The notes under the pieces: generated by a model | What the model saw: only the letters and a program-made list of their open reading frames with translations | The model's database searches: none | Told to the model about the DNA's origin: nothing | In this document: positions 58,500-62,388 of the stretch, piece by piece | Numbering within the stretch: position 1 is the stretch's first letter | Layout: every line of letters begins with the position of its first letter | Program-made: the position numbers and the translations under genes | NCBI GenBank assembly: GCA_963836815.1 | Contig: CAWILD010000014.1 | Span: 31,615 to 95,614 of the forward strand | Source of the DNA: an uncultured Gemmatimonadales bacterium | Lineage (GTDB): Bacteria > Gemmatimonadota > Gemmatimonadetes > Gemmatimonadales > GWC2-71-9 | Length of the DNA: 64,000 bases | Reading direction: 5' to 3'

Positions 58500-58524
58500 G
58501 CCTAACCCGCGCATGCAGCCGACG
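58500..58524 (+). repeat. attC site, left part (split by insertion)
   Basis: GCCTAAC-ccgcgcATGCAGCCGACG is followed directly by the left terminal inverted repeat. It continues at 62261. Confidence 0.8.
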
Positions 58525-58557
58525 GGGGTATAAAGATAACTCGAAAAAATGTCAGTA
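58525..58557 (+). repeat. left terminal inverted repeat
   Basis: ggggtataaagataactcgaaaaaatgtcagta. A second GATAACTC lies 20 bp inside. Confidence 0.75.
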
Positions 58558-58663
58558 GCGCTATTCGGATAACTCATCACGCTCCAGCAGCTACCGCGGT
58601 GTATGCTGGCGATCTCATGCCGGCGAAGACAGATTTCGAGCATCCCCTTCATATGGCTTGGCC

Positions 58664-58940
58664 GTGACCGACGTGACGGCCTCCGCATTGGCCAACGCCC
58701 TTCGCGATCGCTACCGCCTTGAGCGTGGCTGCGGACGCGGCGGGATGGCGACGGTGTATCTTGCCGAGACCTGAAGCACGGCCGCGAGGTCGCGCTCAAG
58801 GTCCTTCGCCCGAAGTGGCCGCGGCGCTCGGTACCGAGCGGTTCCTGCAAGATCCATATCAGCGCCCGGCTCGACCACCCCCACATCCTCACCTTGATAG
58901 ACTAGGGCCAGAAGACGGTTGGTGTGGTACGTACTGCGGT
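58664..58940 (+). pseudogene. Ser/Thr kinase N-terminal fragment (frameshifted, stop-containing)
   Basis: ..ALRDRYRLER..GRGGMATVYLAE|..VALKVL..LGTERFLQ..ARLDHPHIL.. is readable only by switching frames. It is paralogous to the N-terminus of the kinase at 19367-22274. Confidence 0.65.
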
Positions 58941-58989
58941 TAGGCATCTTTTAGGAACGGTAGCAGCGATGCAGGGGTAGTGAAGCTCT

Positions 58990-59870
58990 ACTGATGCACG
59001 GCAGGCGGAGCGATCCATCCTGGCCGCGGCGAGCTGGTTGGCGAAGGGCCGCTGGACGTGGTAGCGCCAGGTATCAGCAATACAGCCTTCGTTGGGGTCT
59101 TTCTCGGGCTAGTGCTCGTGCTCGTGCTCTTCCACCTGTTCTCATCAATGGGGTACTCAGGACTCGGATAGTGTGCTCAGCACGTGCTCTGAGGCCTTCG
59201 AATGACCACTCTCCCTTCTTCATCGAGGAAATACAAGCAGTAGCGCTTTGCGGAGATCATGTAGCCGCAGAGGTCACGCGTTTGCTCGCGTACGTGTTCT
59301 CTTTCTCGAGCTTCAGGAGAGAACCACTCACCACGGGCCGTACGGGTTGAGGCTGTCCAGGCGCTTGATGATCTTGTTGACGCAGCCCAGCTAAGGGCAC
59401 GTATCGCTGGCCGACCATCGCGCTTCTTGTAAGGCCGACAGGGACAGGGTACGAGCTCACCCCGCCGGGAGGCTACAATGGCTATGGAATCTCTGTCGGT
59501 GAACAGGTAGGTCCCACGGCGGCTGTCACCATCCGCTCGATAATCGCGAGCATGAGCCGCGCCGCGCGTTCGTGATCCAGGCTGCCAGCGGCGTGGAAAC
59601 AGAACTCCCCCGGATCCTCCGGGTGCTGGGTTTGACAGCTGAAGGCCCCCTCTCTCTCCATGGCCCCGGACTCGGGCCGGTTTCCCTGGGGCGAGCGATC
59701 GCGGATCGAACTGGGCAAAGACGCCGTAGCTGCCGCTGTTAGCTATCACCTTCAGCAACTTCTCCACCCGCTGGCGCTCACGCGGACTGATTTTGGCGTC
59801 GGGTAGGCTCTTGATCCGATGGCGTTCCTCGATCACATGGTCGGCGAGGAACACCTGGCCGCCGCTAAGC
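58990..59870 (-). pseudogene. family B DNA polymerase remnant (protein-primed type), palm/thumb region only, multiple frame breaks
   Basis: In N-to-C order on the minus strand: KLLKVIANSGSYGVFAQ (motif B, Kx3NSxYG), ..AARLMLAIIERMV..GTYLFTDRDSIAIV (motif C, degenerate YxDTDS), ..GYMISAKRYCLY.. (KxY), ..KASEH... At least 5 frame switches are needed. The N-terminal exonuclease half is absent. Confidence 0.65.
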
Positions 59871-59926
59871 GTGAGCTGGACGAGGGGCTGCGGGACCAAT
59901 TTCTCCATCACCCCCCAGGAGGAGCT

Positions 59927-60400
59927 ATGCGTGCCGAACAACAACTTGCTGATCACCTCTGGTTTCTCAACTCGCTTGTGCGCATCCGAGTGGCCCATTC
60001 CGCCGGAGCCGACGGATTCTCCGTCATCGAATTCCAGGCCCCATTCGGCGATTCACCACCCCTGCACATTCACTACATGGAGGACGAGTTGTTCCATGTC
60101 TTGGAGGGTGAGTTCCGCTTCACGATCGGAGGCGAGGAAATGCGCGCTGGCCCGGGTGAGCTGATTCTGGCTCCGAAGGGCGTACCTCACACCTTTCGAA
60201 TCGAATCCGCCGCTGGAGGTCGCTATCTAATCGTGACCACGCACGGCGATTTCGAACGCTTTGTCCGGGAGCTGAGCCGCCGGGCCGAGCGTGCGGAATT
60301 GCCAGCACCTTCAGGACCACCTACTCCAGAGCAGATCCAGGCGCTGGGTGCCGCGGCCATGCGCCACAACGCCGAGATTGTGGGCCCCCCGCTCACTTGA
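59927..60400 (+). CDS. cupin domain protein (cassette captured inside the element)
   Basis: CAGGAGGAG precedes ATG 59927. ..SPPLHIHYMEDELFHVLEGEF..LILAPKGVPHTFRI.. Followed by an attC lacking its left end. Confidence 0.7.
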   Translation: MRAEQQLADHLWFLNSLVRIRVAHSAGADGFSVIEFQAPFGDSPPLHIHYMEDELFHVLEGEFRFTIGGEEMRAGPGELILAPKGVPHTFRIESAAGGRYLIVTTHGDFERFVRELSRRAERAELPAPSGPPTPEQIQALGAAAMRHNAEIVGPPLT

Positions 60401-60416
60401 TCTCGACCCTGTGTTT

Positions 60417-60527
60417 CGGACGGTCCCGAGCTCCGCTCGGGCGCCGCGTCCCTTTAGGACGCGGCGGAACGAAGGATTGTGCGGGCGCGGCCATGATCGC
60501 CCGCAGCTGATGCGCATTGCGTTAGGC
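60417..60527 (+). repeat. attC site lacking its left (R''/L'') end
   Basis: cggacggtcccgagctccgctcggg..ggaacgaaggattgtgcgggcg..cgcccgcagctgatgcgcattgc-GTTAGGC. Confidence 0.65.
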
Positions 60528-60613
60528 GGACGCGCGAGCATCTTGGTAGGATAAGACACGACTCGCATCACTATCGCGGATACGTGCATGCATTCAGGCC
60601 TAATCGTTTCTGA

Positions 60614-62041
60614 TTGCGACGGCACCTTGGTCGACAGCAAACCCGGCGCGAACACGGTCTGGCTGGAAGTCGCTGCCGAGTGACTCATATTCCATTTGCC
60701 ACCACCGGCGCCTACCCGGTACGTGCGGGCAATCGCGTCCACCCGCTCATTGATGGCGAGCCTGCATTTCGCCGGGTTTGTGACGCCATTGATCAGGCCC
60801 TAGCGCGCGTGTGGGTCGCCGTCACGTTTCTCTGGGCCAGCTTTCAGATGCCCGATGGTCGCGGTTCGTTCTTTGACGTACTGACACGAGCGCGCCAGCG
60901 TGGACTCGACGTCCGGGTGCTATTTTGGCGACCCGATGATGCGACCGCACATCTGCGGACTAATGCGTTCTGGGGGTCGCCCGCGCATGTCGCGCTGCTG
61001 GAGCAGCAGGCATCGGAGATCAGCATTCGCTGGGATCGCGCGCACCCTGGATTCTGTCAACATCAAAAACTCTGGCTCATCGACGTTGGGTTGGAAACGG
61101 CCTGTGCGTTTGTCGGTGGCATCAATCTCAATCCCCATTCGGTGGTTGCCCCCGGCCATCGTGGCGCTAAACACAATCACGACATGTATCTCGAGATCAG
61201 CGGTTCGGCAGTCACAGACGTCCACCACAACTTTGTGCAACGCTGGAACGAGGCCAGCGAACGGGACGAGGCGGACGGTCGGTGGGGACCCGATGCTGAT
61301 CGCGATCTCGCCTTTCCAGACCGGGTCGCGGCGGTACGTGGATCCACCGTCGCCCAAGTGCAACGGACGATCCATCCTGGCCGCTACGCCAACACCCACC
61401 CCACTCCCGGCGGGGCTCCGTTTGCCATCGCCGACGGTGAGTTCTCCAATCGCGACCAGTACATCCATGCCATCCGCGCTGCCCGTGAGTATATCTATCT
61501 TGAGAACCAAGCCATCAGTGTGCGGCCAATCCTTGAAGAGCTTGTAGCCGCGGTGAAGCGCGGCGTGGCGGTTGTCCTAGTGTTGCCGACCGTGGCCAAC
61601 AGCATCGACGCACCTGCGGATCCCCACGGCGAGCTGTTCCGTGACGAACGCCGCACGCTGGCGCGCACGTCGCATTTCACTCTAGCAGGACTGGCCGGAC
61701 CAGATGCCAGTGGCGCACGCCAACCCGTTCACGTGCATGCCAAACTTATGATCATTGATGATGTCTGGGCGACGGTCGGCTCCTGCAACCTCCACCGATA
61801 TTCCATGTATGGTAACAGTGAGCTCAACATCGCCTTCGCCGATGCGGTGACGGTGCGCGCATTACGCTGCGAACTCCTAGCGGAGCATCTCGATCAGGAC
61901 ACATCCGCGCTCGATGGCCGATCGGCGCTCTGCGTGTTTCGGACCGTGGCTGAGCAGAATGCGGGTCGCCGGGACGGTGGAGATCCCGACTGGGAAGGAA
62001 TCGCCTGCGCGATGGATCCACTTCAGTGGTGGGCAAGCTGA
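60614..62041 (+). CDS. phospholipase D / HKD-superfamily protein (cassette inside the element)
   Basis: Two HKD motifs: CQHQKLWLIDVG..GGINL and HVHAKLMIIDD..VGSCNL. GTG 60680 is a plausible alternative start. Confidence 0.8.
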   Translation: MRRHLGRQQTRREHGLAGSRCRVTHIPFATTGAYPVRAGNRVHPLIDGEPAFRRVCDAIDQALARVWVAVTFLWASFQMPDGRGSFFDVLTRARQRGLDVRVLFWRPDDATAHLRTNAFWGSPAHVALLEQQASEISIRWDRAHPGFCQHQKLWLIDVGLETACAFVGGINLNPHSVVAPGHRGAKHNHDMYLEISGSAVTDVHHNFVQRWNEASERDEADGRWGPDADRDLAFPDRVAAVRGSTVAQVQRTIHPGRYANTHPTPGGAPFAIADGEFSNRDQYIHAIRAAREYIYLENQAISVRPILEELVAAVKRGVAVVLVLPTVANSIDAPADPHGELFRDERRTLARTSHFTLAGLAGPDASGARQPVHVHAKLMIIDDVWATVGSCNLHRYSMYGNSELNIAFADAVTVRALRCELLAEHLDQDTSALDGRSALCVFRTVAEQNAGRRDGGDPDWEGIACAMDPLQWWAS

Positions 62042-62102
62042 ACGGCGCGATCGTCGGCCGGTCAATGACAAGGAAGAGAACCCTAATATCTCGAATGGCG
62101 CC

Positions 62103-62145
62103 ACCTAACCCGCTAATGCAGCCGACAATCGCGGGCGGTTCGGAC
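62103..62145 (+). repeat. attC left end (R''/L'') truncated on the right
   Basis: ACCTAAC-ccgctaatgcagccgacaatcgcgggcggttcggac, then unrelated sequence. Confidence 0.6.
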
Positions 62146-62164
62146 TTCTTCGGATCGATAGCCG

Positions 62165-62204
62165 GGTGAACTAGCTACCCCTCTCTGTCTCTTAACCCCT
62201 CGAA
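62165..62204 (+). repeat. single arm of the 22302-22385 palindrome family
   Basis: ggtgaactagctacccctctctgtctcttaacccctcgaa, compared with ggtgaacagcggcaggctatctatctcttaacccttcgaa. Confidence 0.5.
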
Positions 62205-62227
62205 CGTTTGAAGGCTGGCTGAAGGGG

Positions 62228-62260
62228 TACTGACATTTTTCCGAGTTATCTATATACCCC
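62228..62260 (-). repeat. right terminal inverted repeat
   Basis: tactgacatttttccgagttatctatatacccc is the reverse complement of the left repeat with 2 mismatches. Confidence 0.75.
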
Positions 62261-62388
62261 ATGCAGCCGACGGGCCGGACCTGTCCCGGGCTCCGCCCAG
62301 GCGCTTCGTCCTTGGAGGATGAAGCGGAACGTAGGTTTGTGCGGGCGGCAACCTGATGGCCCCGCAGCTGATGCGCATGTCGTCAGGC
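62261..62388 (+). repeat. attC site, right part (continuation of 58500-58524)
   Basis: ATGCAGCCGACGggccggacctgtcccggg ... cccgcagctgatgcgcatgtc-GTCAGGC. Confidence 0.8.

Follow-up and report, generated by a model that had tools for sequence, protein, structure and literature searches.

The DNA analysed here is a 64,000-nt window on contig CAWILD010000014.1 (positions 31,615 to 95,614; assembly GCA_963836815.1) from an uncultured Gemmatimonadales bacterium, and our subject is a pair of inverted repeats towards its right-hand end that enclose a patchwork of gene fragments within an array of integron-type attC sites (Table 1). The window holds two attC arrays of opposite orientation (16220–19300 and 35300–64000) with 19 left arms, those on the minus strand falling at 17.4–19.3 kb and those on the plus strand between 35.3 kb and the window end. 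The attC repeats run from GCCTAAC to GTTAGGC over ~107–150 nt and have the features by which such sites are recognised: R'' (RYYYAAC) and R' (GTTRRRY) boxes, an imperfect palindrome, a bulged hairpin, and arrangement in arrays after promoterless cassettes. The attC of a related locus (L070) folds into a long hairpin with bulges (−40.7 kcal/mol, z −2.3). No matching Rfam family was found for these repeats. A tyrosine recombinase gene on the minus strand (16220–17437) is separated by 47 nt from the first attC on that strand; its score falls far short of the NCBIfam cut-off for integron integrases, and no clear IntI was identified in the window.

Table 1 Features at and between the two inverted repeats (window positions).
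Feature	Position	Strand	Remarks
Left arm of deaminase cassette attC	58500–58524	+	R'' box GCCTAAC at 58500–58506; ends with the 12-mer ATGCAGCCGACG
Probable casposon terminal inverted repeat, left end (GGGGTATAAAGATAACTCGAAAAAATGTCAGTA...)	58525–58562	+	Aligned with nine other termini; 24 invariant positions
Ser/Thr protein kinase, N-terminal fragment, frameshifted	58664–58914	+	~84 codons; reads inward from the left end
Casposon-type family B DNA polymerase, decayed internal fragment, frameshifted	58949–59836	−	Corresponds to aa 549–844 of the 1061-aa polymerase of locus L050
Cupin_2 gene, 157 aa	59927–60400	+	Pfam E 1e-15; cluster of 56 near-identical proteins
attC without left arm and 12-mer	60405–60527	+	Right arm only; ends GTTAGGC
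PLD/HKD cassette	60528–62102	+	Gene 60680–62041, 453 aa; Pfam PLDc_2 E 4.9e-26; 257-member cluster
attC of the PLD cassette	62103–62137	+	Left arm and start of central part; right arm missing
Probable casposon right end	62183–62260	+	Subterminal CTCTGTCTCTTAACCCC and TCGAACGTTTGA; terminal inverted repeat 62223–62260; homologous right ends in L038, L049 and L069
Right part of another attC	62261–62388	+	Starts with the 12-mer ATGCAGCCGACG; ends R' GTCAGGC

A repeat search of the window returned the two inverted arms as 38-nt sequences (58525–58562 and 62223–62260) that are 89% complementary. Their 33-nt core, GGGGTATAWAGATAACTCGRAAAAATGTCAGTA, has exactly two copies in the 64 kb, matching at 31/33 positions (0.00 expected from 100 shuffles). 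The 12-mer ATGCAGCCGACG stands at 58513–58524 and again at 62261–62272, each copy directly abutting one terminus; the two 12-mers are 3736 bp apart, and ambiguity in the G-runs at the junctions makes the apparent duplicated segment 12–14 bp. These results agree with the original prediction, made from the sequence alone, that 33-bp inverted repeats bound 3736 bp and that a G-run widens the flanking duplication. Its account of the contents (a kinase fragment, a decayed polymerase, a cupin gene with a left-truncated attC and an HKD/PLD gene with a right-truncated attC) also held throughout, as did its statement that no transposase is recognisable in the interval, which we can extend to the whole 64-kb window.

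Between the two ends, the interval consists of the kinase fragment, the frameshifted family B DNA polymerase (PolB), the cupin gene with its attC, the PLD cassette with its attC, and ~135 bp before the right repeat. The kinase fragment matches aa 1–84 of a kinase that adjoins the same terminus in locus L050 (tblastn, E 4e-13) and shows 70.6% nucleotide identity to the window's own kinase gene at 22184–21965. The polymerase relic is 42.5% identical to the L050 PolB (tblastn, E 6.6e-53), with 68% nucleotide identity to L050 5067–5850; a relic of motif B (KVIANSGSYG) and KRY are present, and motif C has degenerated to TDRDS. The open reading frame (ORF) itself gave no Pfam, NCBIfam or PDB sequence match, and a PolB profile searched against PDB sequences likewise returned nothing. 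In other arrays the cupin gene is the second gene of an amidohydrolase–cupin cassette, whose upstream partner has been lost in the window, and the PLD cassette is common, with 89–93% nucleotide identity to its counterparts in L055, L056 and L062 (92% for L062). The attC part beyond the right end (62261–62388) is 84% identical to the neighbouring attC at 57901–58029.

Other copies of the repeat, which the original prediction had proposed to look for, do exist, and in two loci (L049 and L050) they occur with Cas1 and PolB. A first scan of a genome collection with GATAACTCGRAAAAATGTCAG gave no match, nor did a scan of viral contigs; scanning metagenomes for the repeat core returned 48 loci, among which L038 is the one true relative. 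The remaining 47 were dismissed because they carry an unrelated AT-rich repeat that shares only a 23-mer with the core. This multi-copy sequence (...CACCGATAACTCGAAAAAATGTCAGTCAAGTTTAACAAC...), found in L001–L037 and L039–L048 (metagenome Ga0056123 and two others), often lies at contig ends, and the exact 23-mer that it has in common with the casposon repeat is probably due to chance. A second genome scan yielded ten matches, nine of them by chance and one true, on a Gemmatimonadales metagenome-assembled genome (MAG; L062). The PolB frame of the window had just four homologues, all fragments, among 5.8 billion proteins, and one of these lies on L049. In all, ten termini from six sources (the window, L038, L049, L050, L062 and L069) could be aligned, with 24 positions invariant.

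Locus L049, a 15-kb contig, has the repeat at 27–62 and, inverted, ending at 14007, which delimits a 13.98-kb element. Inside it a Cas1 gene (Pfam Cas_Cas1, E 5e-31) adjoins the PolB fragment; both are relics, and the Cas1 retains the conserved blocks NPANAMLNYLYAILEAE...LLHAD...FDVMEPVRP. Cas1 homologues of this type are numerous, ~460–530 aa long, and some come from Gemmatimonadales and Chloroflexota MAGs. The closest full-length one, 77% identical, is encoded on L050 and is intact (481 aa; Pfam Cas_Cas1, PF01867, E 1.4e-35). It belongs to a conserved module with a 1061-aa PolB, three small genes (one encoding a MerR-type helix-turn-helix (HTH) protein), a 331-aa gene and an 81-aa gene, and the right end of the element carries the repeat (17858–17889), ~6.4 kb from Cas1. 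The modelled Cas1 (predicted local distance difference test score, pLDDT, 86.5) has a helical C-terminal domain, and its closest fold match is 6OPM (E 1.9e-17), the Methanosarcina mazei casposase in complex with its integration product. The full-length PolBs contain recognisable ExoI (DTE), ExoII (NLPFD), ExoIII (YNRQD), A (DVTSMYP), B (KVVANSGSYG) and C (TDTDS) motifs and the KxY motif, as KRY. Their sole Pfam match, PF03175 of the protein-primed type, is weak (E 4e-6); they also match phrog_1907 (E 1e-8) and phage DNA-polymerase profiles.

Cas1, PolB and terminal inverted repeats (TIRs) together define a casposon (PMC4046053). Since the same terminus accompanies Cas1 and PolB in L049 and L050, and the window's PolB relic is homologous to theirs, we consider it likely that the inverted repeats are the termini of dead casposons of an attC-targeting bacterial lineage, one or more of which left remains in the window. 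The kinase adjoining the terminus recurs in L050, and the TIR length of 33–38 nt falls inside the range of described casposons, whose repeats measure 25–602 nt and often overlap the duplication (PMC4046053, PMC6614799, PMC9939771). The casposon comparison offered in the original prediction was the correct lead, and its suggestion that the interval is the wreck of a self-synthesising, PolB-encoding transposon is borne out by the termini that L049 and L050 share with the window. The family B polymerase is represented in the window by a decayed fragment only, and the copy there is a non-functional relic, with neither a casposase nor a working polymerase.

The right ends of these elements have further sequence in common. 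In the window the right end holds the last 14 codons of a small ORF (...TFEGWLKGY*), with the stop codon within the repeat. A comparison of right-end loci (window 62183–62233; L049 27–110 and 14008–14032; L050 17889–17980; L069 13704–13790) showed that the 3' end of such an ORF (...EGWLK..*), its stop again in the repeat, lies just inside the terminus and is preceded by TCGAACGTTTGA and a degenerate terminus-like sequence, CTCTTAACCCC. On their outer side, the L049 and L050 termini adjoin similar sequences (TCAAGACATTGA GGGATGGTTGAAGG). This pattern could have arisen because one subgroup inserted into right ends belonging to another (nested insertions), or it could represent repeated subterminal binding sites. 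The block at 62183–62198, taken by the original prediction for one arm of another palindromic repeat, is part of this conserved right-end sequence, and the second copy in L069 has the same GGGTTAAGAGA block. An IS50-like end at 62186 (CTGTCTCTT) was considered and rejected, since it is unique in the window and belongs to the right-end sequence in common with L069.

Seven of the ten termini (those of the window, L038, L062 and L069) lie directly against one and the same attC 12-mer, with the element in either orientation, which argues that this lineage integrates site-specifically into attC, probably in the left arm at ATGCAGCCGAC(G/A). In the window, the 12-mer at 58513–58524 is the casposon target or the duplicated segment. 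In L062 the terminus abuts ATGCAGCCGACG GGCCGG of the attC directly upstream of the PLD cassette. In L069 two separate decayed solo ends occur in one array, each right after ATGCAGCCGAC(G/A) of an attC left arm. Two termini in L038 face each other across 14 nt, consisting of the same attC 12-mer and AT, and the corresponding spacer in L049 is 12 nt long. L049 and L050 together contribute the other three termini; the 12-mer next to these is a different one, similar among the three. Casposases are known to produce duplications of 14–15 bp (the median for casposons is 15 bp) at targets made up of a leader motif and the duplicated segment, often integrating in tandem, and those that have been studied need the motif 9–15 bp upstream of the duplicated segment (PMC4046053, PMC6614799, PMC9939771). 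Here the R'' box GCCTAAC is located 7–13 nt upstream of the 12-mer, and we infer that it may be the recognition motif, in the role of the leader.

Whether the two ends belong to one element was addressed with L070, which carries the deaminase cassette with an uninterrupted attC and thus provides an empty site for the left junction. Window 57999–58526 is 97.5% identical to L070 over 528 nt, and homology ends exactly at ...ATGCAGCCGACGGG (...GACGGG). The right half of the L070 attC shows only 71% identity to the window's right flank (62261–62388), and its match to the inner attC arm (60405–60527) covers only the last 62 nt, which are generally conserved. Given the contrast between 97.5% on the left and 71% on the right, the flanking 12-mers come from different attCs. 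The original prediction, in which the attC stops and resumes with the same 12 nt at 62261, was right about the presence of both 12-mers and, judged against L070, wrong in joining them into one site; it had itself named independent attC copies on the two sides as the finding that would speak against a single element, and the comparison with the uninterrupted attC in L070 gave just that. Identical flanks do not discriminate between the possible histories, as the exact 12-mer is present in 7 of the 19 left arms and two attCs have about a one-in-three chance of a perfect flank match. Stem covariation is of limited use for pairing attC halves: the left arms are mostly identical, and compensation is seen for some of the variants only. 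Nor do the relatives of the DUF4386 cassette (L067–L069) provide an empty site for the right junction, since the gene there is not preceded by an attC.

The inner junctions were compared with relatives in the same way. The attC of the PLD cassette continues beyond the 12-mer (ATGCAGCCGACA ATCGCGGGCGG), as it does in relatives, and the casposon site has not been cut; where this attC meets the right end there is therefore a deletion junction rather than an insertion junction. A second insertion cutting the PLD attC exactly at the casposon site was considered and rejected on the same ground. Because the cupin gene is elsewhere the second gene of an amidohydrolase–cupin cassette, the junction upstream of it is a deletion junction too. 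Both cassettes have the orientation of the array, and the PLD cassette with its upstream attC arm is arranged likewise in L055 and L062. At the attC upstream of the PLD cassette (60400–60427, compared with L062 1123–1183) the left arm, the 12-mer and ~3–5 further nt are gone. This loss may be the scar of a third insertion that was imprecisely removed, a possibility raised by L062, the Gemmatimonadales MAG in which a casposon terminus is inserted at exactly the 12-mer of the homologous attC.

We therefore lean towards a history in which the two ends come from two separate casposon insertions into two attCs, followed by deletions, and L069 provides a precedent for several decayed solo ends in one array. 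By analogy with the studied casposases, the casposase would recognise the 3' ends of the repeats and join them to the two target strands 12–14 bp apart, just downstream of the R'' box GCCTAAC, and gap repair would then duplicate the 12–14-mer. Two casposons would have entered two attCs of the array in the same orientation, one into the attC of the deaminase cassette and the second into a further attC whose left half is now lost. Deletions would then have removed the right part of the first casposon with the adjoining array up to the cupin gene, and the left part of the second casposon along with what remained of the PLD attC and any sequence that followed it, while a smaller loss took the left arm of the cupin attC. 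What remains of the first casposon would be the repeat, ~84 kinase codons and the middle third of the PolB gene, and of the second ~80 bp comprising the last codons of the small ORF and the repeat, with the native cupin and PLD cassettes left standing between them. As the 12-mer belongs to each of these attCs in any case, the pair would mimic one element with a target duplication, and two insertions into an array of repeats probably gave the false impression of a single 3.7-kb insertion. The single element in one attC with a true target duplication, as originally proposed, is hence not supported by the comparison with L070.

Several observations weigh against parts of this interpretation. No Cas1 was detected by tblastn in the interval or in the 64-kb window, so that the integrase by which a casposon is defined is lacking from the window copy. 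The targeting of attC is a property of a subgroup only, because the termini of L049 and L050 abut other sequence. No complete element flanked by both halves of one attC was present among the loci seen, and both the existence of a duplication and its length (12, 13 or 14 bp) are for this reason read from junctions and spacers only. The two-insertion history requires at least four deletions and depends on one empty-site contig, which comes from another metagenome, and a single insertion followed by an attC–attC microhomology deletion on the right flank would leave the same flanks.

The last of these points leads to an alternative that we regard as unlikely: a composite, non-autonomous casposon derivative that lost its core, captured a piece of the array and was moved as a 3.7-kb unit by a casposase acting in trans. 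Capture could have occurred when a damaged right end was read through as far as the next casposon end, and L062, where a casposon lies directly upstream of the same attC–PLD segment, represents a plausible precursor. Such a unit would have inserted in the deaminase attC with a real duplication of 12–14 bp. The good preservation of both termini (31/33) and the identity of the flanking 12-mers fit this scenario, as does the ability of casposases to integrate any DNA with repeat ends in vitro (PMC9939771). However, the sequence on the right flank does not complete the deaminase attC (71% versus 97.5% identity), which means that the right half of this attC must have been replaced later by an extra attC–attC microhomology deletion, and none of the collections scanned yielded a second copy of the composite. 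The orientation and order of the array piece are, moreover, the native ones, which would be expected had it stayed in place. The earlier notion that a non-autonomous transposon had picked up this piece is more simply replaced by one of native array lying between two decayed insertions.

Very improbable, in our view, is a derivative of a DDE transposon, whether a miniature or cargo element of the Tn3 family or a member of the IS4 group, in which the PolB and kinase pieces would be incidental. The 38-nt repeat, which begins GGGG and has a CGGAAAAA centre, does recall Tn3-family ends, and IS4-group elements give duplications of 9–13 bp, a point made in the original prediction. Yet no DDE transposase is encoded inside the L049 repeats or between the L050 terminus and the start of that locus, the duplication is 12–14 bp rather than 5, and the rare repeat co-occurs three times with the rare PolB family, which gave five hits among 5.8 billion proteins, and twice with Cas1. 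The IS4-group option found no support, there being no DDE_Tnp_1-type transposase in any repeat-carrying locus. Least probable of all is an assembly artefact, with repeats wrongly joined into chimeric junctions in this metagenome-assembled contig. Arrays of attC sites and ends present in many copies do pose difficulties for assembly, but the junctions between terminus and 12-mer recur in independent assemblies of other samples (L038, L062 and L069).

Additional observations concern the larger relatives. In L053, a related casposon whose Cas1 is 68% identical, the ends are very different (1411–1571 and 11479–12423, delimiting ~11 kb): in place of the GGGGTATA repeat they have short repeats (AATCTCCGG...-type) in inverted arrays. 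A 331–373-aa gene without a family match overlaps the start of Cas1 in both L050 (9009–10004) and L053 (8917–10038); the overlap suggests that the two genes may be translationally coupled, and the product could be a partner of the casposase. The two versions of this gene have no mutual similarity detectable by tblastn. The core proteins of L050 and L053 include no HNH domain by Pfam, though several of these proteins match nothing, and no tyrosine recombinase. The cargo of the intact or larger relatives looks defence-related. It includes a patatin with a CD-NTase C-terminal domain, resembling the cyclic oligonucleotide-based antiphage signalling system (CBASS), and two Ser/Thr kinases in L050 (1–4037 and 12285–17701); a 1668-aa NACHT protein, a DCD deaminase and a weak HEPN match in L049 (306–5312, 9018–9884 and 11803–12870); and PycTM and DUF559 in L053 (2506–3809). 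On a further contig (that of P0003; ENA ERZ27275469) another PolB fragment of the same family adjoins a DDE_3 (IS630-type) transposase, which is probably an insertion sequence (IS) that entered a decaying casposon.

Elements of this kind are known, casposons having been described in 2014, whereas the lineage and its attC target look new. We compared it with the described families by features. Family 2 (Aciduliprofundum boonei, Methanosarcina mazei) resembles it in combining TIRs, a PolB and a Cas1 integrase with a C-terminal helical domain (best fold 6OPM), and also in integrating site-specifically, with a duplicated segment beside an upstream recognition motif (14–15 bp versus 12–14 bp here) and with tandem or adjacent insertions (PMC6614799, PMC9939771). 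Family 2 differs in having archaeal hosts and in targeting the 3' end of a tRNA or EF-2 gene, where we find bacteria and an integron attC; the 1030–1060-aa PolB here is very divergent, and no HNH gene was detected. Bacterial hosts are shared with family 3, in which HenMar-C1 also carries Ser/Thr kinase cargo (PMC4046053), but family 3 has an RNA-primed-type PolB and HNH. The thaumarchaeal family 1 is alike in its protein-primed-type PolB and unlike in its archaeal hosts and in a casposase without the HTH domain. What sets the present elements apart from the described families is thus the combination of bacterial hosts with a divergent protein-primed-type PolB, the lack of a detectable HNH, and the attC target. 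Full-text searches, which have incomplete coverage and provide absence of evidence only, found no paper linking casposons with attC or integron sites, or with Gemmatimonadota.

Other mobile elements share individual traits with this lineage. Pipolins (piPolB) are likewise bacterial, encode a PolB and carry defence genes; they use tyrosine recombinases at tRNA genes and have direct repeats, in contrast to the Cas1 and inverted repeats found here. Tn3-family ends and miniatures share a 38-bp repeat beginning GGGG, but here there is neither a Tn3 transposase nor a 5-bp duplication. IS1111-attC insertion sequences and group IIC-attC introns are attC-specific mobile elements, and they too use the conserved attC as a repeated safe landing site defined by sequence or structure. 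Instead of Cas1 they employ a DEDD transposase or a reverse-transcriptase ribozyme, and they are not known to have inverted-repeat termini with 12–14 bp duplications, a polymerase or large cargo. On balance, our data favour the existence of a widespread, undescribed bacterial casposon lineage, with a Cas1 of ~480 aa, a highly divergent protein-primed-type PolB and often defence cargo, that is specialised on attC.

Casposons are rare, have been studied almost only in archaea, and are central to the hypothesis that CRISPR adaptation arose from a Cas1 transposon. The relic itself is inert, and its value lies in exposing, from few loci, a casposon lineage with attC specificity. For annotation, it illustrates that paired repeats with a matching 'duplication' in a repeat array need not mark a single element. 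If our interpretation is true, it links two otherwise separate recombination systems, Cas1 integrases and integrons, and provides a natural case in which a Cas1 integrase duplicates a portion of a repeat in an array, in formal analogy to the way spacers are integrated at CRISPR repeats. The 12–14 bp segment beside the R'' box would be a readily testable target for a Cas1 that reads a structured, arrayed repeat. For integron biology, these casposons would represent a new class of large elements that bring in cargo such as CBASS-like genes, NACHT proteins and kinases and leave deletions behind, so that casposons would repeatedly shape and erode chromosomal cassette arrays.

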